Notes under the pieces: generated by a model | Database searches by the model: none | What the model was told of the DNA's origin: nothing | Seen by the model: only the letters and a program-made list of their open reading frames with translations | Made by a program: the position numbers and the translations under genes | In this document: in pieces, positions 4,531 through 64,000 of the stretch | Layout: each line of letters opens with the position of its first letter | How positions within the stretch are numbered: position 1 is the first letter of the stretch | From: Candidatus Bathyarchaeota archaeon | GTDB taxonomy: Archaea > Thermoproteota > Bathyarchaeia > Bathyarchaeales > Bathycorpusculaceae | Assembly (NCBI GenBank): GCA_963767735.1 | Contig: CAVYES010000005.1 | Location: 192,001 to 256,000, forward strand | Reading direction: 5' to 3' | DNA length: 64,000 nucleotides

Positions 4531-6075
4531 TTATCTGTCGAGCATGAACGATTTCTGTGGCGCAAGTCTCTCAGGTACGAGATCCAAAATCATCTTTTCC
4601 GCAGGCTTCTTTGTCAAAACGACCGGCGATAATTGCGTTGCAAGCTGTAACGCCGAAGCCAACTTGCTGCTTCGCTCAGCGTAGATTTCAAACAGGACAT
4701 CGCCTTTATGCACGGTTTCACCCAGCTTTGCATGCAACACCATGCCTGCGCCTTTTTCTTTAGGGGTTCCGGCTTCGCGTGCAATTCGAACGATGTCATC
4801 CGTGCTTATCCAAATAACCTTCCCAGAACATTCAGATCGAACTTCCGCCATTTTTGTGCCGACAGGCAAATCGTCAGGTTTAACTTTTGGGTTTCCGCCT
4901 TGAGCAGCAATTATTTGCCGCATTTTGGCTTCGGCTTTGCCTGAATCAAGCATTTCCTCTGCTTTGGCGCTTCCGTTTTCAACTCCGACCATTTCGAAGA
5001 GAATGCCTGCGAGGCTAACAGCTTTATCCCTCAGGTCAGGCGGTCCCTCGCCCATAAGAGTTGTTAATGCTTCACCCGCTTCAAGGGCAGGTCCGATGCA
5101 GCAGCCTAATGGTTGGTCCCCGAAAGTTAGGGCGCACTGAATGTTTAAGCCTAAACGTTTCCCCAGATCCACAAAATCCGAAGCCAAAGTGTACGCCTCG
5201 GTTCGTGTTTTAATTTTAGCAGCCATCCCCGTTGGAATATCAATCACTACGTGTGTGGCTCCGATGGCTTTTTTCTTGCTAAGAATAGACGGCAAAAGCA
5301 TAGGGTCAATTCCTAAGGGGTATTCAACTTGAATGAAAAGGTCATCGGCTGGCGCAAGCTCCAAAGAGCCGCCCCAAACCAAGCACCCGTTAGTTTTCGC
5401 TACAACCTCTTTTATCTCGTCGATGGCTAAGTTTACGGGGCAGAGAGTTTCCACGCGGTCTGCGGTTCCAGCAGGCGAGGTAATTGCTCGTGAAGAAGTT
5501 TTGGGGATGGTGAATCCTGCAGCCGCCACAATGGGCACAACAAGCATGGATGTTTTGTCGCCTGGTATGCCGCCTACGCTGTGCTTATCAAGGATGGGTC
5601 CTTCGCCGAAGCTGAGTGTTTTCCCCGTGGCAACCATAGCTCTTGATAAGGCTTCATTCTCGCTTGTGCTTAATCCGTGAATGCTGAGCGCCGTTAAGAA
5701 AGCGGCTACTTCAGCGTTACTCAAATGCCGCTCAACAACATCCTTCACTATGTTCACAAGGTCTTTCTCACGCAAACGTTCCCCATGCAGTTTAGCTCTG
5801 ACGTTGAAAAGCGACTCAGGAAGGGGGGCTAGCTGCACAGAAACAGTCTCATCCTCTTTTACGCCTAGCGCTTTGGCGGTTTCATCGTAGAGCCCGATGC
5901 TTTTTCTAGAAAAATATTCCGCGATGTTTGCAATGGCAATCATTTCCTTGTTGCCATATTTTATTCGTATTCTGTCTGAGCTATGCACGCCCAACGAGTT
6001 GGCGCTTTCTTCGCTGATTATGGCGATTCTGCTTCCGCCCGTAAGTATGGGCAAGAGTTCAACCTTTAACTCCAT
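4531..6075 (-). CDS. deoA: AMP phosphorylase
   Basis: DKHSVGGIPGDK, KTSSRAITSPAGTAD, LAPADD, SILSKK motifs with N-terminal extension; next to RuBisCO and R15P isomerase. Confidence 0.93.
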   Translation of the reverse strand: MELKVELLPILTGGSRIAIISEESANSLGVHSSDRIRIKYGNKEMIAIANIAEYFSRKSIGLYDETAKALGVKEDETVSVQLAPLPESLFNVRAKLHGERLREKDLVNIVKDVVERHLSNAEVAAFLTALSIHGLSTSENEALSRAMVATGKTLSFGEGPILDKHSVGGIPGDKTSMLVVPIVAAAGFTIPKTSSRAITSPAGTADRVETLCPVNLAIDEIKEVVAKTNGCLVWGGSLELAPADDLFIQVEYPLGIDPMLLPSILSKKKAIGATHVVIDIPTGMAAKIKTRTEAYTLASDFVDLGKRLGLNIQCALTFGDQPLGCCIGPALEAGEALTTLMGEGPPDLRDKAVSLAGILFEMVGVENGSAKAEEMLDSGKAEAKMRQIIAAQGGNPKVKPDDLPVGTKMAEVRSECSGKVIWISTDDIVRIAREAGTPKEKGAGMVLHAKLGETVHKGDVLFEIYAERSSKLASALQLATQLSPVVLTKKPAEKMILDLVPERLAPQKSFMLDR

Positions 6076-6107
6076 AAATAGTCACGCTGTAAACTGAGTA
6101 CATTTAG

Positions 6108-6943
6108 GAATAGTTAAAGATTTCAAACTGTCAGAAAATCGTCAAACATTGACTGAGCTATGTCGAGGCTTCTTGATTTAATCAGTTTTGCTAGTAGGTG
6201 AGCAAGTGAATAGTATTAAATTTGAAATGAAATATATATCAGTCTATGACGGGTCTTGGGAAGGCTTGGCACGATTAAGCAGAAAAGGCAAGCTCCTAGT
6301 TTCAGCGGCCATACTGATAGTTTTGGTTCTGTTGTTGACTGAATTTTGGATTATCCCACAAATCTTTCCAGAATCGCCATCGGCTGTATCACCCACCATT
6401 GGAGCAATCCAACCAACTGCAGGTTATTACTTGCCTTTCAGGGGAAATGTTAGCAAGATTTTTGTAGTTTCTGTAAACGTTAGTTCTGGTGTCTACCCAT
6501 TTGACCCGCGAGCAAGCATGGGCAGTATAAATGGGAAGCCAGCGGGGAAAATAGTTGTCACAAAAGGGGAACCTTGCGTTGTCATCAACGTTACTCTCCG
6601 TAATGACTATTCAGCACAGAACCCGCCACCTAACCAGCTTATTTACGACCCCAAATATCCGGCACAAGCGTATATTTTCATGACCGCGAAAATATTCAAT
6701 GGGAACAACGAAATCAACTCAACTGATTTAATGCACTTAGACTTGCCCCCTGACGCTTGGTCTGAAACATGGCTAAATGGTGGAGGAACTGGAACAATCT
6801 CAATATATTTAGCCATTACAAGCCACAGGGAAATTACAGGTTTTCAGCTAAATACAATATGGATTGGCGGAGTCCCCCTGGCATAGATTGCATTCAACTG
6901 TTGACTCCTTAAGGTAGGGTTGAACAAGAATAGTTAAAGATTT
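6108..6943. repeat. 16-bp exact direct repeat GAATAGTTAAAGATTT (6108-6123, 6928-6943) bracketing an unrelated gene
   Basis: Both copies read directly; each contains a TATA-like core upstream of deoA (minus) or rbcL (plus). Confidence 0.8.
6266..6886 (+). CDS. Hypothetical membrane-anchored/secreted protein
   Basis: Likely TTG start 6266 (MARLSRKGKLLVSAAIL..), single N-terminal TM helix, beta-rich body. Confidence 0.7.
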   Translation: MARLSRKGKLLVSAAILIVLVLLLTEFWIIPQIFPESPSAVSPTIGAIQPTAGYYLPFRGNVSKIFVVSVNVSSGVYPFDPRASMGSINGKPAGKIVVTKGEPCVVINVTLRNDYSAQNPPPNQLIYDPKYPAQAYIFMTAKIFNGNNEINSTDLMHLDLPPDAWSETWLNGGGTGTISIYLAITSHREITGFQLNTIWIGGVPLA

Positions 6944-6983
6944 TAAGGAAAAACAAGTTCTCACTATCCCTGAGAGGAACGCT

Positions 6984-8208
6984 TTGAAGTATCTTGACTT
7001 TGTAGATTTAACTTACGTGCCGAAAGAAACCGATTTAATCTGCACATTTTATTTGGAGCCCGAAGGCATCAGCCTCAAGGAAGCCGCAGGCGGCGTTGCC
7101 GCGGAAAGTTCCGTGGGTACGTGGACAGAACTCACAACAGAGAAGCCGTACGTGAGCAAGTTGGCAGCACACGTTTACAGCATCGATGGCAATGTAGCTA
7201 AAATCGCTTACCCGATTGAACTTTTTGAGCCAGCCAACATGCCTAACATTCTAAGCAGCGTTGCAGGAAACGTTTTCGGGCTTAAAGCACTCAAAAACCT
7301 GCGCCTCCTCGACATTCAAATGCCAAAAAGCTTAATCCACAGCTTTAAAGGTCCAAACTTTGGCATCGCTGGAATTCGCAAGCTCCTAAAAGTTCCTGAG
7401 CGCCCGCTTGTCGGTACAATAATTAAGCCCAAACTTGGACTAAAAACTAAAGACCACGCAAAAGTGGCTTATGAGGCTTGGAGCGGCGGCTGCGACATCG
7501 TAAAAGACGACGAGAACTTGAGCAGCCAAAAATTCAACCCCTTCGAAGAACGGCTCGTTCAGACTTTGGAGAGCCGCGACAAAGCGCAGCAGGAAACGGG
7601 TGAACGCAAAGTCTACATGGTTAACATCACCGCTGAAACCAACCTTATGCTAAAACGCGCAGAAGCCGTCATCGCTCAGGGCGGAGAATACGTGATGGTG
7701 GACATCTTAACCACTGGCTGGTCAGCACTCCAAACCCTCAGAGACCAAAACCTCAAACTTGTCATTCACGCTCACAGGGCAGGGCACGCTGCTTTCACAA
7801 AAAACCCGCAAACACGGCATAGCAATGCGTCCGATAGCAACAGTTGCAAGAGTAATTGGCGTTGACCAACTCCACGTGGGCACAGTAGTGGGCAAAATGT
7901 CAGAAACAAAAGCAGAAGTGCTTGAAAACATCGACGCATGCAAAGCCATGCTGGGCGGATTAAAGCCTGTTTTGCCCGTTGCTTCAGGAGGAATCCATCC
8001 ACGACTTGTGTCTGCACTTCTTGAAACTTTCGGTAACGATGTGGTTATTCAAGCTGGCGGCGGAATCCACGGGCATCCAAACGGAACCGTAGCGGGAGCA
8101 AAAGCCATGCGACAAGCCGTTGACGCCAAATTGAACGGTCAATCCGTGGAAAAATACGCTGAAACTCACAGAGAATTAAAAGCCGCCTTAGAGCATTGGA
8201 AAGTCTAA
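6984..8208 (+). pseudogene. rbcL: Form III RuBisCO large subunit, split by an extra base near 7805-7809
   Basis: AAESSVGTW, IKPKLG, KDDE, HAHRA in 6984-7865; HVGTVVGKM, SGG, GGGIHGHP in 7759-8208; removing one base restores FTKNPKHG. Confidence 0.9.
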
Positions 8209-9131
8209 GTTCGTTTAAGAACCCAAGGGTAACTTCGATGTACCGTTTCAACTATTGATTGAGGTGCGATTACTCCTTCTTCGCAGATTAAGCCGTGGAT
8301 GTAGCGGCTTGGGGTAACGTCAAAAGCGGGGTTGCGAACAGAAAGCTTCTCGGGAGCTTCATTCCAGACTTCTCTTGGGCTTCGCTGTTCAATGTGTTCG
8401 TATGTTCCGTTTAGGGTTTCTGGGTCGAACTTTAAGAGTTCCGAAACGACATAGAAGGGTTTTCGGGCTTCGTTGGCTAAGACGGCGATGCTGCTGGTGC
8501 CAATCTTGTTAACAACGTTGCCCTCCGAGGTGATGGCGTCTGCACCCACAACTACGAGGTCAACATCGCCCATATAGGAGCGTGCAGCGGAATCGACAAT
8601 GAACATGGTTTGGATGCCGAGCTCGACCATTTCCCTGGCGGTTATTCTTCCTTGGAATGCGGGTCGCGTTTCAGTGCAGATAACGCTGAATTCTTTGCCG
8701 TCAGCTTTGGCTTTGGCAATCATTCGTGTCACTGTTGACGAGTGGCAATGAGTAAAAACTAACATGCCATCGCGGATTCGGTTGGCGCCTATTTCCGCAA
8801 TGACTTCTCTTGAAGCCTCAAGATTCTGCAAAAACAAAGCTACGTTTGAACTAACCATCTCGCCCAGAACATCAACCTTTTCTTTGGTGCTGTCTTGGGT
8901 CTGAGTGATTACCCATCGGACGGCGTTTCTCATTAAGGGCTCAGTTTCTCTTGACGCAAAAAGTGCTGCCTGCGCTTCTTTAAGCTCCTCTAAGAAGGCT
9001 GTTTTGTTTTTAGCTTTTGTCTGCTCTGCTAAAGTTTGGATGGCTTTTACGGCGGCTATGGCAACGTTTCTTGCACCTTGAACTTCAAGTCTTCTTATCC
9101 TATCTGCCGTCGCGAGAACTGTTTCGTTCAC
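8205..9131 (-). CDS. Ribose-1,5-bisphosphate isomerase (eIF-2B family)
   Basis: VQGA, THCHS (catalytic Cys), ETRP, VGADAI (catalytic Asp), NKIGT, NPAFDVTP; pathway context. Confidence 0.9.
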   Translation of the reverse strand: MNETVLATADRIRRLEVQGARNVAIAAVKAIQTLAEQTKAKNKTAFLEELKEAQAALFASRETEPLMRNAVRWVITQTQDSTKEKVDVLGEMVSSNVALFLQNLEASREVIAEIGANRIRDGMLVFTHCHSSTVTRMIAKAKADGKEFSVICTETRPAFQGRITAREMVELGIQTMFIVDSAARSYMGDVDLVVVGADAITSEGNVVNKIGTSSIAVLANEARKPFYVVSELLKFDPETLNGTYEHIEQRSPREVWNEAPEKLSVRNPAFDVTPSRYIHGLICEEGVIAPQSIVETVHRSYPWVLKRT

Positions 9132-23937: not shown

Positions 23938-24014
23938 TGGAGCCTTCGGCGGGATTTGGACCCGCGACCATTACCTTACCAAGGTAACGCCCCACCGGGC
24001 TAGGCTACGAAGGC
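23938..24014 (-). tRNA. tRNA-Thr(GGT), CCA encoded
   Basis: GCCTTCG/CGAAGGC acceptor, TTACC-TTGGTAA-GGTAA anticodon arm, GCGGG-TCCAAAT-CCCGC T arm. Confidence 0.93.
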
Positions 24015-24188
24015 AAACATGTGTTCCCGTGAAAGAACTGTGTCTTGGCAATAAAATGCTTACGGTCAGAACCTGAGGCAAACTGCAACGTTCTCAACTC
24101 TCTTCATTTTCGCTGGTGGGAAAAGCTTCATATTAATTAGTTGGTACAGAGATTATCTCGGCTTGAGCAAAAAAGCTCGTGTAATGTT

Positions 24189-24273
24189 GCAGGGGTCTCC
24201 AAGCCTGGTCAACGGAGTAGGGCTTAGGACCCTATCGCGTAGGCGTTCGTGGGTTCAAATCCCACCCCCTGCA
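24189..24273 (+). tRNA. tRNA-Leu(TAG)
   Basis: GCAGGGG/CCCCTGC acceptor, TAGGG-CTTAGGA-CCCTA anticodon arm, long variable arm, GGTTCAAATCC. Confidence 0.95.
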
Positions 24274-24408
24274 CTTTTTTGGTTATTTTCTGCTTGCTTC
24301 TTGCTATTTTCTCGCTTTTTCGCAAAGAAATGGTAAGGAATATTCACTTTGATTGGAGTTCAAACCTCCAGATCATAATAGGGCTCAAATTCTGGAAAGG
24401 TCATTGCC

Positions 24409-28040: not shown

Positions 28041-29273
28041 ATGGCAGATGTAATAGATATAGCTATTGAAGCTGGGGGTTTCAAAACATTTGTCGCAGCA
28101 GTACAAGCGGCAGGATTAGATGAAACATTAAAAGGTAAAGGACCGTTCACGATTTTTGTGCCAGATGATGCTGCATTTGCAATGCTTCCCGCGGGCACTG
28201 TCGATGAACTATTGAAAAATGTTCCAAAACTTAAGGCGATTCTGATGTACCATGTTCTTCCGGGAAAGTTTACGGTTGACGAAATAGCTCAAATGAAGAC
28301 CGCTAAAACTATTCAAGGTCAAGAAGTCAAGATTGACGCCGCCCATTGGTGGTCTCTTCACTTTAACCCAATAATCAATGATGAAGCACACATGATAAGT
28401 ACAGACATTATAACCGATAACGGCATAATACACGTTTTAAACAGAGTGCTTATGCCAAATATGGAACTTACCTGTCCAGTGTGCGGAATGGGCTTTATGA
28501 ACATGGAAGAAATGAACACTCATACCAAAACGGCTCACGTAATTGAGAAAACACCAGAGTCACCGCCGTCCAGTGGAGAGATGCCTATGGCTGAGAAAGC
28601 AGCCGAACCTATTCAAACCGCTGAGGTAATGCCGGTAGTTGAGAAAGCACCAGAACCGATGCTACCTGCCCAAGTACAGGAACCAATGCTACCTACCCCA
28701 GAACCGGAGCCAATGCTACCCACCGAAGTTACGCCAGTAGTTGAGAAAGTGCCAGAACCAATGCCTCCCACTGAACCTATGCCAATAGTTGAGAAAATGC
28801 CCGAGCCAACGACGACCGCAGAGGTAGTGCCAGAGCCAGTTTCTGCAACGGCTAAAGCGGTGGCAGGAGTTTTTGAGATCATACGAGACGCTGATAGAAA
28901 GTTCCGTTTCCACCTCAAAGCGACTAACGGACTGATAATTGCTGTAAGCCAATCTTATGGAACAAGAGAGGCAGCTGTAAAAGGCATTGCCTCAATTATG
29001 AAGAATGCTCCAATGGCTAAGGTTGTTGATCGCACATCGGCAGGAGGAGCTATGCCAGAGATAAAGCATGCTGGAATTGTACAAGACCCAGTGTTTGAGA
29101 TCATGTGCGATGTTGGCGGAAAGGTCCGTTTCCATCTGAAAGCTGCTAACGGACTGATAATTGCGGCAAGCCAATCATATGGAACAAGGGAATCAGCTGA
29201 AAAAGGCATCGCATCAATAAAGAAGAACGCTCCAATGGCTAAGGTTGTTGATCACACAATGGCAGCGACTTAA
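28041..29273 (+). CDS. Fasciclin (FAS1) + C2H2 zinc finger + Pro/Glu repeat linker + tandem DUF1508 (YegP-like) fusion
   Basis: GPFTIFVPDDAAF, YHV, NGIIHVLNRVL; CPVC..H...H; EKxPEPM repeats; two FRFHLKA.NGLIIA.SQSY repeats. Confidence 0.82.
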   Translation: MADVIDIAIEAGGFKTFVAAVQAAGLDETLKGKGPFTIFVPDDAAFAMLPAGTVDELLKNVPKLKAILMYHVLPGKFTVDEIAQMKTAKTIQGQEVKIDAAHWWSLHFNPIINDEAHMISTDIITDNGIIHVLNRVLMPNMELTCPVCGMGFMNMEEMNTHTKTAHVIEKTPESPPSSGEMPMAEKAAEPIQTAEVMPVVEKAPEPMLPAQVQEPMLPTPEPEPMLPTEVTPVVEKVPEPMPPTEPMPIVEKMPEPTTTAEVVPEPVSATAKAVAGVFEIIRDADRKFRFHLKATNGLIIAVSQSYGTREAAVKGIASIMKNAPMAKVVDRTSAGGAMPEIKHAGIVQDPVFEIMCDVGGKVRFHLKAANGLIIAASQSYGTRESAEKGIASIKKNAPMAKVVDHTMAAT

Positions 29274-58452: not shown

Positions 58453-59301
58453 TCATAGACTTCTAAGCTGATTTAACGTTCCCAGATATGTGCCATCCAA
58501 AAGGTAAAGCTCAGAATTATCAACATCGACGGCTTCCGAGCGCAACACTGGTCCAATCAATGCTTCGCTACCGATTTCTTTTCTGGGTCTTGTTTCGTTT
58601 ACTGGTCTGCCGCCGAGGAAATCGTTGAAGCTGGGCATTATGAAGATTTCCTTCACCTTCAACCTGATATTATAGTGCTTCTTGAGTGTTTCAGCTACTG
58701 TGCCTTTGATTTTTACGTTGTGCTTCTGCAGCAGAATCTTTGCCAGGGCTTCGGAGTTACAGTTTACCCTCATCCACACTTGTCTTGTAATTTTAAAGCC
58801 TATTGGGTCACGGAATACTACAACGGGGTGCAAATGCCCCATAACCAAAGTTTTGCAGCTAAGCAGGGTAGGCGAGGGCCATTTGTGACCATGAAAAACG
58901 CCTATGTCACCGATTACCGTTCCCGTTGCGGGCAGAAGCCGAACGTTTTCGGGCAATAAAGGTTCAATGTTAGCGTCATGGTTACCCCGTACAATAGCTA
59001 TGTCACCAACGTAGCTTTGCAATTTAGCAAAAAAATCGGGAATATCATGCCACTCACCCATTTCGCTGGAAATAACAGTGTATTTTACGTCACCAAGAAT
59101 AACCAGTTGCTGCGGCTTATATTTGGTGATAATCGCCGTTAGCTTGTTAAGGATTTTTGGCGTTTGGCTTGGAACATGAATGCCTTTTTCTTGAAGCGAG
59201 GTTTCCCAACCGAGGTGCGGGTCAGCGATGAGAAGAGTTATAGTTTTTCCATTTTTTATCAATGCCGCTGGGTGAGGCCAAAGCAAACTCAACATGGACA
59301 T
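58453..59301 (-). CDS. Metallophosphoesterase
   Basis: ADPHLG, LGD, GNHD, HGH, GHLHP, PSFN. Confidence 0.88.
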   Translation of the reverse strand: MSMLSLLWPHPAALIKNGKTITLLIADPHLGWETSLQEKGIHVPSQTPKILNKLTAIITKYKPQQLVILGDVKYTVISSEMGEWHDIPDFFAKLQSYVGDIAIVRGNHDANIEPLLPENVRLLPATGTVIGDIGVFHGHKWPSPTLLSCKTLVMGHLHPVVVFRDPIGFKITRQVWMRVNCNSEALAKILLQKHNVKIKGTVAETLKKHYNIRLKVKEIFIMPSFNDFLGGRPVNETRPRKEIGSEALIGPVLRSEAVDVDNSELYLLDGTYLGTLNQLRSL

Positions 59302-60125
59302 TTAACCAAGCTTAAGATTTTTTCATGAATCTGCATGTTGCCTGAAGCTATGAAACTTAAAGTTTGTTTGGGATCCAACTCAATGTTTAATGCTTGATTC
59401 TCTGGCGATGTTACTATTCCGCCTGCCTCCTTTATAATGAGAAAGCCTGCCGCTACGTCTGTGGTTCGGAGTTTTCCACGTATGTCAACAAACGCATCCG
59501 TCAACCCATTTGCCACATAGCAGAGTTCAAGTGCGTTGGCGCCGAAATGGCGGATATGTTTTGTTTTGGCGATAAGTTCGGTCAGTTTTGGCGCAATTTC
59601 CTTGACTTTGTAAGTGTTTAAGTCTAAGCCTATCATTGCATCGTCCAACGTGGCCGTTTTTGAAGTCTGTATTTTTTCACCATCCCGATAAGCCCCTTCA
59701 CCCTTAAAGGCGGTGTAAGTTACCTTGTGGTATAGGTCAGAAACCATGCCTGCATAAACGTTTGCAAGCATGCGTTTGTCAGAAACTGCGATTGAGCAAG
59801 CATAGAAGGGTAAACCATGCATAAAATTTGTGCTTCCATCAATAGGATCAACCGTAACAAAGCATTCCTCTGCCGAAGCGCCGAACTTTTTTACCCCTGA
59901 CTCCTCGCTAATCAGCGTAAACGAAACGTGATGCTGCTTTAAGGTTTCAACGATTGCTGTTTCAGCCGCCAAATCCATCGGCTTCATAACGTCTCCACCG
60001 GCGCCCATGCCCAAGTTAGGTTGAGGCTCCCGGATTGTGGCTAAGCATGGCTGAATGCTGGCTCGTACATTGCTCTGGCATTCAAGCAGAATTTTTTGCC
60101 AGCCGTTTGGTTTTTGCGTTTTCAA
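59289..60125 (-). CDS. suhB: Inositol monophosphatase/FBPase
   Basis: SEE, DPIDGSTN, R.FGA, D.AAG..I..EAGG. Confidence 0.9.
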   Translation of the reverse strand: MKTQKPNGWQKILLECQSNVRASIQPCLATIREPQPNLGMGAGGDVMKPMDLAAETAIVETLKQHHVSFTLISEESGVKKFGASAEECFVTVDPIDGSTNFMHGLPFYACSIAVSDKRMLANVYAGMVSDLYHKVTYTAFKGEGAYRDGEKIQTSKTATLDDAMIGLDLNTYKVKEIAPKLTELIAKTKHIRHFGANALELCYVANGLTDAFVDIRGKLRTTDVAAGFLIIKEAGGIVTSPENQALNIELDPKQTLSFIASGNMQIHEKILSLVKCPC

Positions 60126-60308
60126 TGGAACACCTTCGCGTGTTTTCTAATATGCTGACAAGTTGATAAATGCTATACTTTGTATTTTTATGGGAAGGAC
60201 AAATATGCAGTTAGCCTCAGAAACATTTGACGTGAAAGCAAAGCAGATTATTTGAGCCTAACTCCCGAAACGCTTATATTTTCTGGATAACGTCCTATTG
60301 AGCAAGGT

Positions 60309-60441
60309 TCGAAGCTACCATGTCCAATTGCAAAAGCAACAAAGAAAACAACACATCACAGTCACCTAGCTTCGACTACTATTTTTACGGTTATTTTTCT
60401 TAAGCCCAGAACTGAAAAGTTTTTTGAGCAAAGTTCTGGGC
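60309..60441 (+). promoter_or_regulatory. Leader RNA hairpins (putative attenuator)
   Basis: TCGAAGCTA(60309)/TAGCTTCGA(60367); GCCCAGAACT(60404)/AGTTCTGGGC(60432) enclosing a T6 run. Confidence 0.65.
60320..60403 (+). CDS. Putative Phe/Tyr-rich leader peptide (27 aa)
   Basis: MSNCKSNKENNTSQSPSFDYYFYGYFS; 7 of codons 18-26 are Phe/Tyr; lies upstream of the aro operon. Confidence 0.7.
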   Translation: MSNCKSNKENNTSQSPSFDYYFYGYFS

Positions 60442-60459
60442 AAGGCATGGGTGTAAGAG

Positions 60460-61707
60460 ATGGCAAAAAATAATTCTTGCAGAAGAATTGTTGTTAAATT
60501 CGGTGGTTCTAGCTTAGCTGATCATGAGCGTCTCTTAAAAGCGGCGCTTGCGGTTGTAAACGAAGCAAAGGAAGGCACGCAGGTGGCTGTTGTAGTTTCT
60601 GCTATGGGTAAAACCACCGATGCCCTTATGGCGACAGCGAAAAACGCTTCCAATGGGAAACTGGAGAAAAAAGACTTAGACGATATTCTCTCGATGGGTG
60701 AGCGAACCAGCATAAGAATATTTGCTGCTGCGCTAAAGACCAACGGTGCAGAATCCTGCTATTTTGACCCGATAGACAATAACTGGCCAATAATAACTGA
60801 TTCTGCATTCCAAAACGCCAATCCAATCCTGAAAGATTGCGAAAAAAACATACGTGAATGCATACTGCCCATTTTGGAAAAAGGCGTCATACCTGTAGTG
60901 GCAGGGTTTCTTGGCAAAACTAAAGACGGCAAAATCACTACTCTCGGAAGAGGCGGCAGCGATACAACGGCGTTTATTTTAGCTGAAGCATTGAACGCTG
61001 ACGAAATCGTCTTAGTCACCGATGCAGACGGCATAATGTCAGGTGACCCAAAAATCGTCTCCAACCCAGAACGCCTAGAAGAAATCGATGTTAACACAAT
61101 AGTTGGACTTGCCGACTCAGGTGCTAAATTTATTCACAGTAAGGCCTTAAAGTACAAACCAAAAAATATCAACGTTAGAGTAATCAATCATGCACACGGC
61201 AACTTAACTAACGAGGGAACAGTAATCACGGGAGCGTTAGCAAGTGAACTTGACGCGGAAATAGCCCATCCTTTTCCAGTTGCTGAAATAACGGTGGTCG
61301 GAAACGGAATCTCCGCTAATCCGCAAATTATTCAAGAAATGGTGGAAAAAACAAAACAGCACTCCCTGCTTTTGGGCATGTCGATGAATACAAACTCAAT
61401 CTTACTTTACGCTTCTCAAGAAAAGAACTTAGACACTCTCTTCAACGATATTCACGATATCACAAAGCGCAACAAAGAAACCATCGCGATGGCGGTCAAA
61501 AAAGACCTGGTCTTCATAAAAACAAGCGGCGTCGGCTTAGAAGAAACCCACGGCATTATCGGTAAAATCAGCGAAGACCTCAGACTGAACGGCATAAACA
61601 TTTCTGGCATACTAACCATAACATCAAGCATCCTGCTTTTTGTAGATTGGGCTGAACGTGAAAAAGCTCTTAAGCTAATTAAAAACTCATTAAGGACTTC
61701 TAAATAA
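60460..61707 (+). CDS. lysC: Aspartate kinase
   Basis: KFGGSS, VVSAMG, GE, TTLGRGGSD, TD..G..DP; ACT domains. Confidence 0.92.
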   Translation: MAKNNSCRRIVVKFGGSSLADHERLLKAALAVVNEAKEGTQVAVVVSAMGKTTDALMATAKNASNGKLEKKDLDDILSMGERTSIRIFAAALKTNGAESCYFDPIDNNWPIITDSAFQNANPILKDCEKNIRECILPILEKGVIPVVAGFLGKTKDGKITTLGRGGSDTTAFILAEALNADEIVLVTDADGIMSGDPKIVSNPERLEEIDVNTIVGLADSGAKFIHSKALKYKPKNINVRVINHAHGNLTNEGTVITGALASELDAEIAHPFPVAEITVVGNGISANPQIIQEMVEKTKQHSLLLGMSMNTNSILLYASQEKNLDTLFNDIHDITKRNKETIAMAVKKDLVFIKTSGVGLEETHGIIGKISEDLRLNGINISGILTITSSILLFVDWAEREKALKLIKNSLRTSK

Positions 61708-61723: not shown

Positions 61724-62515
61724 ATGAATCAAGGCAAAAAACGGCGATTAAAAAGAATCATGCGCGAAGACAACCGCACGGTAATCGTGCCCATGGATCA
61801 CGGCGTAACAATCGGACCAATCCAAGGAATAACCAACATGCAAGAAATAATCAATCAGCTCCTAAAAGGAGGCGTTGACGCTGTGCTGGTCCACAAAGGC
61901 ATAGCCAAGCTGGTAGATGTTGAAAACGCGGGTTTAATAGTGCAGTTGTCAGGCATGTCAAACCTTAGCCCGAACATAAACGGTAAAGTCCAAGTGTGCA
62001 GTGTTCAAGAAGCCATACGCTTAGGCGCAGACGCGGTCTCCGTGCACGTGAATGTTGGTTCACAAGATGAGGACAAAATGCTAAGCAACCTAGGCAAAGT
62101 ATCTGACGAATGCGACATATACGGTATCCCGCTGCTTGCCATGATGTACGCTCGAGGACCAAAAATACAAAATGAACATGCGCCAGAGGTGGTAGCTCAC
62201 GCTGCAAGAATCGGCGCTGAACTAGGTGCAGACATAATCAAAGCAAACTTCACAGGAGATATCGACACGTTCAAAACAGTCATCGAAAGCTGTCCAGTTC
62301 CAGTTGTAATTGCTGGAGGACCAAAATGCAAAACATCCCAAGAAATCCTTCAAACCACGCATGATTCAATAACGGCGGGGGCTGTAGGGCTCTCCATTGG
62401 ACGAAACGTGTTTCAACATGAGAACCCAACTTTAATTGTTAAGGCGCTCTCAGCAATCGTTCATGATGGGGTTAGCGTGGAGCAAGCGCTTAAAATTCTC
62501 GGTGAAAAAGCTTGA
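61724..62515 (+). CDS. aroA': 2-amino-3,7-dideoxy-D-threo-hept-6-ulosonate (ADH) synthase
   Basis: PMDHG, AMMYARG, ELGADIIK, IAGGPK, GRNVFQ; adjacent to DHQ synthase II. Confidence 0.9.
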   Translation: MNQGKKRRLKRIMREDNRTVIVPMDHGVTIGPIQGITNMQEIINQLLKGGVDAVLVHKGIAKLVDVENAGLIVQLSGMSNLSPNINGKVQVCSVQEAIRLGADAVSVHVNVGSQDEDKMLSNLGKVSDECDIYGIPLLAMMYARGPKIQNEHAPEVVAHAARIGAELGADIIKANFTGDIDTFKTVIESCPVPVVIAGGPKCKTSQEILQTTHDSITAGAVGLSIGRNVFQHENPTLIVKALSAIVHDGVSVEQALKILGEKA

Positions 62516-63540
62516 AGGAACTTTGGATAGAAACATCGCTGGAAAAAAAACAAGCTTTAGAGCCGCTTGTCAGTCAGTTTAGCGATTGGGTGGTTGAAGA
62601 AGATAAAGCCACCTTTCTGGTAAACAAAAAAAACATAACCCTCGATATCTTTTCTCCCAAAAAAGCAGAGAAGCTCGAAAAAATTAATGTCTACAAGAAA
62701 ATTGTACGGATTTGTATCAGTGATAAGGAAACCGAAAACCAAATTGTTGAAGCATCTGAGCTTGGAGCAACCTACTTAATTATAAGTTGCGCAAACTGGC
62801 GTGTTATTCCGCTAGAAAACCTAATCGCGCGCATAAAGGGCAAAAGCAAATTAATCGCCGAAGTAACCAATGCCGAAGAGGCAAAGGTGGCACTTGAAAC
62901 CCTTGAATTAGGAACCGACGGCGTTTTGCTGAAAACTTCTAACCTTGAAGAAGTTCGCAAAACGGTTGCCATCGTTAAGCCAGAGGCTTTGAATCTTGAA
63001 ATGGCGGTCGGAAAAATAGTTTCCACAAAGCCTATCAGCACTGGTGCTCGGGTTTGTGTGGACACTTGTGAGTTGATGACACAGGGCGAAGGCATGCTCG
63101 TCGGCAGCCAAAGCGCAGGCTTATTCTTGGTGGAAGCAGAAGTCAACGAGAACCCTTATGTCGCGTCCCGACCATTTAGGGTTAATGCGGGGTCAGTATC
63201 CATGTACACATTAGGTACCCTGCAAACCACCCGTTATCTCCAAGAATTCAAAGCAGGAGATGAAGTTATAATTGTAAACCGCGAAGGCAAAACACGTAAA
63301 ACCAACGTGGGACGCATAAAAATCGAAATCAGACCGCTCATTCTCGTAGAGGCGCAGGTTGAAGGCAAAATCATAAAAACCATTCTGCAAAACGCCGAAA
63401 CCATCCGCCTAGTCACCCCAAAAGACTCAAAGCCAATAACCGAACTCAAACCCAACGACGATGTCATAGTGCACTTAGCTGCGAAGGGGGGCCGGCACTT
63501 CGGCGTATCCGTGCCTGAAGAAACGGTGATAGAGAAGTGA
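62512..63540 (+). CDS. aroB': 3-dehydroquinate synthase II
   Basis: W.VIPLENLIA, RVCVDT, GEGMLVGS, RPFRVNAG, LQNAET, RHFG. Confidence 0.93.
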   Translation: MKELWIETSLEKKQALEPLVSQFSDWVVEEDKATFLVNKKNITLDIFSPKKAEKLEKINVYKKIVRICISDKETENQIVEASELGATYLIISCANWRVIPLENLIARIKGKSKLIAEVTNAEEAKVALETLELGTDGVLLKTSNLEEVRKTVAIVKPEALNLEMAVGKIVSTKPISTGARVCVDTCELMTQGEGMLVGSQSAGLFLVEAEVNENPYVASRPFRVNAGSVSMYTLGTLQTTRYLQEFKAGDEVIIVNREGKTRKTNVGRIKIEIRPLILVEAQVEGKIIKTILQNAETIRLVTPKDSKPITELKPNDDVIVHLAAKGGRHFGVSVPEETVIEK

Positions 63541-64000
63541 CAGCGAGAATCTGCGTTTCGATTCTCCCAAAAAACAATCTTGAAGCGTTAAGTCTCATCG
63601 AGACGGCAGAGAAAGCAAAGGCAAACCTCATAGAAGTTAGGCTAGACTGCCTTGAGTCACATAGAAACCTGTCAGATCTTGTTAAAGGCACCAAAATTCC
63701 CCTAATCGCCACGAACAAGCTAACAATTGAAAAAGGATTTTTTGCCGGAACTGAAACGGAGCGGCAGCAAACATTACTATCAGCTGCCAAGAACGGTTTC
63801 GAATATGTCGATGTTGACTTATTAAGCCTAAAACTTAATGAAACAATCGGCAAACTCAAGCCATTAGGCGCTAAACTAATCGTTTCTTTCCACAAATTCG
63901 ACGGCGTCTTAAGTGTTTCTGAAATGGAGCAGATTCTGAAGCAAGAAATGGCTTGTGGTGCTACCGTCTGTAAGATTGTGACAACAGCAGAGAAAATCGA
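63537..64000 (+). CDS. aroD: Type I 3-dehydroquinate dehydratase (3' truncated by window)
   Basis: GTG 63537: RICVSI..IEVRLD..IATN..EKG..YVDVD..IVSFHKF..CKIV. Confidence 0.88.
   Translation, partial: MTARICVSILPKNNLEALSLIETAEKAKANLIEVRLDCLESHRNLSDLVKGTKIPLIATNKLTIEKGFFAGTETERQQTLLSAAKNGFEYVDVDLLSLKLNETIGKLKPLGAKLIVSFHKFDGVLSVSEMEQILKQEMACGATVCKIVTTAEKI

Follow-up and report, generated by a model that had tools for sequence, protein, structure and literature searches.

This study concerns a 64,000-nucleotide stretch of the genome of Candidatus Bathyarchaeota archaeon (GenBank assembly GCA_963767735.1, contig CAVYES010000005.1, positions 192,001 to 256,000 of the forward strand), hereafter called the window, and a short upstream open reading frame (uORF) that lies in it ahead of an aromatic amino acid operon. 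All coordinates given below are those of the window. The uORF is found in the intergenic region 60126-60459, between a divergent gene of the inositol-monophosphatase family (59289-60125, minus strand; Pfam) and the plus-strand gene for aspartate kinase (60460-61707), which is the first gene of the operon and whose product carries AA_kinase (Pfam PF00696, E = 4.3e-49) and ACT domains. An initial annotation, made from the sequence alone, had placed an aspartate kinase/aro operon here, and Pfam analysis bore this out: the kinase gene is followed on the plus strand by genes for a DeoC-family aldolase of the 2-amino-3,7-dideoxy-D-threo-hept-6-ulosonate (ADH) synthase family (61724-62515), 3-dehydroquinate (DHQ) synthase II (62512-63540) and type I dehydroquinase (aroD; from 63537 to the window end at 64000). 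The latter three assignments were also obtained with NCBIfam on the orthologues in two relatives (loci L001 and L032), and the kinase orthologue of L001 scored 389 bits for aspartate kinase NF005159, against a cut-off of 379. Because the genes of L001 and L032 score by NCBIfam as aspartate kinase, ADH synthase, DHQ synthase II, aroD, aroE and archaeal shikimate kinase, and because they are tightly packed on one strand in the ORF maps, the kinase-led gene set is, judged by its gene families, the operon for the common aromatic pathway in its archaeal, ADH-based form. We report here that comparative sequence features make the uORF directly upstream of this operon a strong candidate for a leader peptide through which ribosomes sense amino acids, the first of its kind in archaea.

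The uORF (60320-60403, plus strand), which the initial annotation had described as unannotated, consists of 27 codons plus TAA and encodes MSNCKSNKENNTSQSPSFDYYFYGYFS. As claimed in the initial annotation, three Phe and four Tyr codons fall within nine codons of it, and no aromatic residue occurs earlier in the peptide. A TATA-like element had been proposed near 60273; it is present as CTTATATT at 60273-60280 and forms part of a BRE/TATA-like promoter (a B recognition element with a TATA box), CCGAAACGCTTATATTTT, at 60265-60282. A 9-bp inverted repeat and a perfect 10-bp stem had likewise been described, and both were found again after small corrections to the coordinates. The first, helix 1 (H1), pairs TCGAAGCTA at 60309-60317, with a conserved core of 7 nt (TCGAAGC, 60309-60315), with TAGCTTCGA at 60367-60375, so that its 3′ arm overlaps the Ser17-Phe18-Asp19 codons of the uORF. 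The second, helix 2 (H2, 60404-60441), begins at the base after TAA and pairs GCCCAGAACT at 60404-60413 with AGTTCTGGGC at 60432-60441 around an 18-nt loop, and the T6 run reported in this loop was located at 60420-60425. Between the helices lies a segment (60376-60403) that is unpaired in the fold of 60304-60445 and contains the Phe/Tyr run, the stop codon and two U5 tracts (60382-60386 and 60394-60398). The Shine-Dalgarno (SD)-like motif of the kinase gene, GGGTG at 60449-60453, occupies the position at which GGTG is found for other genes of the window; this motif and the kinase ATG lie 8 and 19 nt past H2, respectively.

Evidence from the single sequence for such a leader was weak and barely beyond chance. 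When the region 60290-60470 was folded, a z score of -1.21 was obtained, and 23 of 200 shuffled sequences folded equally well; H2 alone gave a folding energy of -16.7 kcal/mol (z = -3.76). The leader is one of seven sites in the window's six frames at which a stretch of ten codons contains at least seven Phe, Tyr or Trp codons. Since these numbers are unpersuasive alone, the case rests on comparison. No Pfam family matched the leader peptide, and the leader gave no match in Rfam 15 at E values up to 10. When the natural 48-aa extended frame of one related leader (L029) was searched against the protein collection, it matched only itself, under the name hypothetical protein; the leader is thus effectively unannotated.

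To assemble the comparison set, the kinase protein was searched against species-representative genomes, which gave 48 loci. Two bacterial non-orthologues (34% and 23% kinase identity) were dropped, as was L038, whose sequence starts partway through the kinase gene, leaving no upstream region to compare. The remaining 45 loci, whose kinases are 70-94% identical to that of the window, were aligned together with the window (n = 46; alignment A1). The top protein matches of the window kinase are named as metagenome-assembled genomes (MAGs) of Candidatus Bathyarchaeia, and the record titles of the 45 loci nearly all read Bathyarchaeota or Bathyarchaeia, with a few Methanocella sp., Thermoproteota, Nitrososphaerota and uncultured archaeon. 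Three loci (L033, L034 and L036) are from MAGs whose titles name Methanocella sp., a Thermoproteota archaeon and a Nitrososphaerota archaeon; by kinase and leader they are clearly members of this Bathyarchaeia group, and the deviating titles may reflect binning or naming differences in the public records.

A uORF of 24 to 29 codons ending in a Phe/Tyr run was present in all 46 sequences and ended 43-66 nt before the predicted kinase start, while 44 of the 46 uORF nucleotide sequences were distinct. The ATG was invariant. Every insertion or deletion within the uORF was a multiple of three, and no in-frame stop codon was found, whereas the other two frames contained stops in 18 and 38 of the 44 distinct sequences. 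The same constraint was seen in the spacing of fixed elements: the distance from the ATG to the 3′ arm of H1 (AGCTTCG) was 42, 45 or 48 nt and that from AGCTTCG to the stop codon 33, 36, 39 or 42 nt, whereas the non-coding distance from the 5′ arm of H1 to the ATG took values of 9, 10, 11, 12 or 15 nt and was not confined to multiples of three. The stop codon itself was TAA in 39 leaders, TAG in five and TGA in two. In 23 of the 46 leaders the last residue before the stop is Pro, encoded by CCT or CCA.

Conservation of the peptide was concentrated at its end. The head of the uORF (the N-terminal part) is poorly conserved and evolves almost freely, but the aromatic tail is kept, and the last 8-11 codons are almost all Phe or Tyr. 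Phe, Tyr and Trp make up 345 of the 532 tail residues (six to nine per peptide), compared with 66 of 715 residues in the heads and 9.2% in the long ORFs of the window; the tails contain a single Leu and no Ile or Val. Codon positions were then counted in the 35 distinct tails (299 codons). Position 1 was T in 237 codons and position 3 was C or T in 292, and all 227 codons of the form T[AT]N ended in a pyrimidine, so that each specifies Phe or Tyr and none is a Leu TTR codon or a stop. Read in the other frames, the same nucleotides would give mainly Ile and Leu, together with nine stops. At homologous tail positions, synonymous variation was common (for example, TAC 36 and TAT 6; TAT 42 and TAC 4; TAT 20 and TAC 14; TTT and TTC also alternated), and Tyr and Phe were exchanged for one another. 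Codon choice in the tails was also shifted towards U relative to the window's genes: TTT to TTC was 83 to 12 in the tails versus 321 to 309 in the genes, and TAT to TAC was 129 to 73 versus 163 to 246.

Mere richness in T, which the initial annotation had named as an outcome that would speak against its proposal, and an internal TATA box were considered as causes of the Phe/Tyr run; both were excluded, given the pyrimidine ending of all 227 T[AT]N codons and the Ile, Leu and stop codons in the other frames. The comparison of upstream regions that it had called for showed the frame, ATG, stop position and aromatic cluster to be kept in all 46 sequences, with variation that was either synonymous or between Tyr and Phe. 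Because frame, start codon, codon cluster and synonymous variation are conserved and T-richness is excluded, a translated Phe/Tyr leader peptide is well supported by the alignment. In 17 of the 46 leaders, a Trp codon occurs a few codons before the Phe/Tyr run (as in ...SWFQSFDY...), which could provide added sensing of Trp in part of the clade; the window's own leader is without it.

A conserved, translated ORF could also encode a small protein with a function of its own, in which case this aromatic-rich micropeptide would share no more than a transcript with the operon. The codon-level constraint is in keeping with this view, as is the prediction of one extended form as a hypothetical protein. 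However, the near-free evolution of the head, with only the aromatic tail retained, and the lack of a Pfam family speak against it, and it would leave unexplained the position of the uORF, an amino acid bias that matches the products of the operon, the abutting helices and the bias towards TTT and TAT. We therefore regard a micropeptide as an improbable explanation, to be given little weight. The leader lies directly upstream of the operon and keeps its place beside the kinase gene when the gene on its other side differs, even at 94% kinase identity. The genes upstream of the leader in L001 (2781-3620, minus) and L032 (3020-3499, minus) are unrelated to the 59289-60125 gene of the window (E = 0.15 and 4.7, respectively), and no NCBIfam family matched these two upstream ORFs.

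The non-coding parts of the leader were conserved as well. In A1, conservation stops upstream of the BRE/TATA block, which is itself nearly invariant, as is the SD-like motif of the kinase gene; the block ends 24-28 nt before the 5′ arm of H1 in all 46 sequences. With the spacing usual between an archaeal TATA box and the start of transcription, the transcript is predicted to begin at about 60304-60306, so that the 5′ arm of H1 would lie at its extreme 5′ end and the uORF would be preceded by a leader of about 15 nt. RNAalifold on A1 yielded exactly two helices, namely H1 with seven pairs (columns 72-78 with 132-138) and H2 with ten pairs. Paired cells amounted to 99.7% for H1 and 98.2% for both helices, versus 23-47% when the partners were slid by one to three columns. 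All 33 one-sided stem changes were G-U pairs on the plus-strand RNA. Of the 14 non-paired cells, eight are U-U mismatches found in the most distant group, at the innermost pair of H2; by reading of the alignment, five others stem from a one-column misalignment of L014, and the last, a C-A, affects the terminal pair of H1 in L020. In addition, the 3′ arm of H1 is fixed at synonymous sites, with TTC as the Phe codon in 45 of 46 leaders, so that this arm is constrained as RNA or DNA beyond the demands of the peptide.

The geometry of these elements was equally constant. Measured from where the stop codon ends, H2 begins at -1 to +5 nt in all 46 leaders (at 0 in 38), and the segment between the helices measures 27-34 nt in all of them. 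Every tail contains at least one T4 or longer tract, and 37 contain two; in the loop of H2, a T run of at least four was found in 43 leaders and of at least five in 34. A pattern made from the H2 motif matched 44 of the 46 leaders, on both strands since it is palindromic, and missed L027 and L029, in which the stems differ; no further copy was found in the window or the 48 loci, so that there is one per locus. Taken together, all 46 sequences retain the uORF, the promoter and the two helices, and on this comparison such conservation lies far beyond chance.

Two further explanations bear on these conserved sites. According to the first, no translation is involved and the ORF is incidental: the elements would be binding sites for proteins on DNA or RNA, such as palindromic operators, an internal promoter at the TATA-like CTTTTATTAT or targets of a repeat-binding RNA protein. 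The helices are indeed conserved more as sequence than as structure, the T/A-rich run resembles a TATA box, and the archaeal aromatic regulators Tar and TrpY bind palindromes in DNA, as described in PMC6737238. However, binding sites fail to account for the invariant ATG, the multiple-of-three indels, the absence of in-frame stops and the pyrimidine at the end of 227 out of 227 T[AT]N codons; one-sided changes that are without exception G-U on plus-strand RNA are not what a DNA palindrome would favour, and the centres of the H2 arms are 28 bp apart. This explanation thus has very little to recommend it. The second explanation invokes nascent-peptide arrest of the TnaC or arginine-attenuator type, in which a peptide Ser-Phe-Asp/Glu/Gly-Tyr...Tyr-Phe(-Pro) would sense free Phe or Tyr rather than tRNA charging. 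The C-terminal motif is conserved, Pro is the last residue in half of the leaders, and a C-terminal Pro can slow release. Nevertheless, Tyr and Phe exchange freely, the length of the run varies by whole codons and the last residue has eight identities, and for these reasons the counting of codons fits better than a peptide that binds in the exit tunnel; moreover, the conservation of Ser-Phe-Asp is explained at the RNA level by H1, with its fixed synonymous sites. We consider peptide arrest quite unlikely.

Attenuation by leader peptides, a mechanism familiar from textbooks on bacteria, relies on the coupling of transcription to translation, and the initial annotation had likened the region to the layout of bacterial pheL/trpL attenuators. 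The interpretation stood in part. With respect to the trpL/pheL class, a conserved short leader ORF (46 of 46) with a cluster of codons for the operon's own amino acids was found; the switch architecture was not supported, as the leader has two non-overlapping helices, no switch and no terminator. A classical switch of alternative hairpins was sought by applying RNAalifold to the complete leader as well as to five sub-windows that mimic the nascent transcript (from the start to the loop; from the start to the stop; after the 3′ arm of H1; from the last codons onward; and with the 5′ arm of H2 masked), and only H1 and H2 were obtained, without overlap or competition. No terminator of bacterial type was detected either: the region 60100-60520 contained no terminator-like site, and H2 is followed by AAGGCA. 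Nor does a U run follow any hairpin, the T run being located within the loop of H2. Judged by these features, the leader shares with trpL and pheL the part that senses, but not the part that switches.

Sequestration of the SD sequence, as in translational attenuation of the ermCL or cat type, was also rejected, since the SD motif lies outside H2 and its accessibility shows no switch: in partition-function calculations on the 46 sequences, the mean unpaired probability of the SD was 0.35 when the leader was free and 0.39 when the tail was masked, with mixed signs. In the same sequences, the mean accessibility of the kinase AUG increased from 0.39 to 0.58 with the tail masked, a modest computed rise that is not enough to make a translational model preferable. 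In such a model, the sensor would be the same but the output translational: a ribosome on the last codons or the stop would decide whether H2 forms and whether the kinase gene is initiated or re-initiated, and any effect on transcription would arise through polarity. Several observations are compatible with this. H2 abuts the stop codon in every leader, so that any ribosome that terminates there or stalls late has to open it; the SD-like motif and ATG of the kinase follow closely after H2; and the AUG becomes more accessible, as given above. Against it stand the unchanged accessibility of an SD that H2 does not contain, the lack of any conserved pairing between the leader and the kinase ribosome-binding site in RNAalifold, and the sign of regulation, as positive coupling through re-initiation would be the wrong one for this operon. 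A translational output is therefore held to be unlikely, albeit worth weighing.

By contrast with these alternatives, the conserved leader is probably, on the comparative evidence, a regulatory leader peptide of the aro operon that senses Phe and Tyr. Because the last 8-11 codons are almost all Phe or Tyr, the time spent by a ribosome on them would report the supply of charged tRNA-Phe and tRNA-Tyr. How this signal might be passed on is suggested by the U tracts. Archaeal RNA polymerase terminates at oligo-T without hairpins, and aCPSF1 binds U tracts through its KH domains, as stated in the accessible sections of PMC13675443. When the tails were examined for a signal of this kind, for which at least one tract of four or more U suffices and a hairpin is unneeded, it was found in all 46.

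We tentatively propose a mechanism in which the U tracts are occluded, a stalled ribosome covering the U-rich segment and thereby preventing premature termination. When Phe and Tyr are plentiful, the ribosome would finish the uORF and depart, leaving the U-rich segment naked; the naked segment would then allow U-tract-dependent termination or cleavage before the kinase gene, either intrinsic, assisted by aCPSF1/FttA, or both. When Phe or Tyr is scarce, the ribosome would stall on the run, its footprint would cover the segment, termination would fail and the operon would be read through. A ribosome footprint is about as long as the inter-helix segment. H1, by sequestering the 5′ end, may allow only the first ribosome to enter the uORF. 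H2 has to melt when a ribosome reaches the last codons or the stop, and it may determine the condition of the U tract in its loop or of the ribosome-binding site downstream. The conserved ORF, the codon constraint, the two helices, the U tracts and their geometry are shown by the sequences, whereas translation of the uORF, stalling, the direction of regulation and the termination factor are inferred. In its general form the proposal would be that archaea possess a non-bacterial form of ribosome-mediated amino acid attenuation, free of a hairpin switch, in which the Phe/Tyr codons double as the U-tract termination signal; this, too, is put forward as a possibility to which we give less than even chances.

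A number of points weigh against this interpretation. The main weakness is one of sign: simple coupling would predict the opposite effect, since with a ribosome that stalls behind RNA polymerase, RNA would be left exposed and factor-dependent termination would become more likely. The leader also lacks the terminator/antiterminator switch that underlies the bacterial logic, and the direction of regulation is for that reason assumed from the function of the operon. The SD-like motif of the uORF is weak (AGGT at -15, just before the 5′ arm of H1, versus GGTG at -10 to -13 for the window's other genes). In three of the 46 leaders the H2 loop has a short T run or none, and in nine the run is only T4. 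As for the hairpin covariation that had been suggested as a check, the helices proved to be conserved but the covariation was thin: double changes were found in only two of the 17 pairs, in two sequences each (four cells; by reading of the alignment, those at pair 181/204 are L027 and L029), the other stem changes being the G-U wobbles, and a shuffle control reached the count of covarying pairs in 80 of 500 trials. The helices are conserved mostly as sequence and could equally well be bound by a protein. Finally, the evidence is comparative throughout, and it comes from a single clade, in which all relatives have at least 70% kinase identity.

Among known systems, the E. coli leaders trpL and pheL (pheA) and the pheST leader, in the part of PMC11802643 that treats them, resemble the present one in having a short leader ORF with codons for the pathway's own amino acids near its end and a poorly conserved remainder. 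The present leader differs from them in that mutually exclusive hairpins and a hairpin-plus-U terminator are missing, in that it is found in an archaeon and is served by a BRE/TATA promoter, and in that the U tracts are encoded by the regulatory codons and by the hairpin loop. Like trpL and pheL, among the closest systems in function is aroR of Corynebacterium glutamicum, which precedes the operon of aroF, encoding 3-deoxy-D-arabino-heptulosonate 7-phosphate (DAHP) synthase; it too stands at the entry of the common pathway and uses mixed Phe-Tyr-Phe codons. According to the portion of the same source (PMC11802643) that deals with it, however, aroR is a bacterial hairpin attenuator with three regulatory residues, compared with six to nine aromatics here, and the first enzyme is DAHP synthase, as opposed to aspartate kinase and ADH synthase at the present locus.

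The E. coli tna leader (TnaC) resembles the proposed leader in its occlusion logic. There, a stalled ribosome masks the site at which the termination factor Rho loads; free Trp is sensed through the nascent peptide, and the operon controlled is catabolic. As in our proposal, an arrested ribosome hides RNA that a termination factor needs; unlike in the tna leader, the input here would be tRNA charging and the signal U tracts. With respect to archaeal termination, the leader resembles the U-tract terminators of aCPSF1/FttA, in which two or three U4-U6 tracts within about 45 nt act and an upstream hairpin is unneeded, as the available text of PMC13675443 and PMC13681488 describes them; those terminators lie at gene ends, whereas the signal proposed here would be conditional, inside a 5′ leader and overlapped by an ORF. 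The portion of PMC13681488 at hand, a 2025 perspective, argues that factor-dependent termination needs uncoupling from the ribosome, and it calls the evidence for coupling in archaea scarce.

The same pathway is regulated by Tar (TK0271) in Thermococcus kodakarensis and by TrpY in Methanothermobacter. As far as the available part of PMC6737238 goes, these are DNA-binding proteins that act at palindromes near BRE/TATA, whereas the element described here lies downstream of the promoter and contains an ORF. The same part states that most Crenarchaeota lack both Tar and TrpY and suggests that a third regulator or mechanism is possible. A search of the full-text literature for a leader-peptide attenuator in archaea, which covered open papers and left subscription-only papers and supplements outside its scope, found no description of one, and no word beginning with "attenuat" occurs in the accessible text of a review of archaeal transcription-translation coupling (PMC8116511).

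The regions upstream of long ORFs in the window and in all loci were also scanned for small ORFs with at least four identical residues in eight. Of the 188 small ORFs flagged, none apart from the Phe/Tyr leader looked both conserved and correctly placed. A recurrent ORF beginning MFGAFFTF... starts about 115 nt upstream of an aroE-sized ORF, by coordinates where L001 has aroD. Pfam analysis of 36 further ORFs revealed no other amino acid operon in the window on which the idea could be tested, and no other amino acid operon with a convincing leader was found in the window and the 48 loci.

Several other features of the window deserve mention. An AMP-phosphorylase-like gene (Glycos_transf_3 plus PYNP_C; 4531-6075, minus), an ORF for the large chain of ribulose-1,5-bisphosphate carboxylase/oxygenase (6984-7865, plus; 293 aa) and a gene of the IF-2B family (8205-9131, minus) form a trio at 4531-9131 that resembles what we take to be the archaeal AMP/pentose-bisphosphate route. 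In the carboxylase ORF the match to the catalytic domain ends at profile position 153 of 299, and the ORF may be truncated, frameshifted or mis-started. Divergent genes for tRNA-Thr (GGT, minus) and tRNA-Leu (TAG, plus) at 23938-24274 were the only hits in the window at the Rfam gathering level, and the 7 kb before this pair (17.1-24.4 kb) contain only ORFs of less than 135 aa. A 410-aa protein encoded at 28041-29273 (plus) combines an N-terminal Fasciclin domain with two DUF1508 repeats, an unusual pairing.

The Phe/Tyr leader ORF, conserved in 46 of 46 sequences, is a concrete and mutable element with which to ask whether archaeal ribosomes signal to transcription, and it bears as well on how U-tract and aCPSF1/FttA termination respond to translation. 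It also illustrates that regulatory genes hide among ORFs that fall under the size limits of gene callers. If the proposed mechanism is true, the leader would be an attenuator without a hairpin switch and would provide direct genetic evidence that transcription and translation are functionally coupled in an archaeal lineage without cultured members. It would, moreover, explain how this uncultured lineage, abundant in soil and peat, senses its supply of aromatic amino acids.

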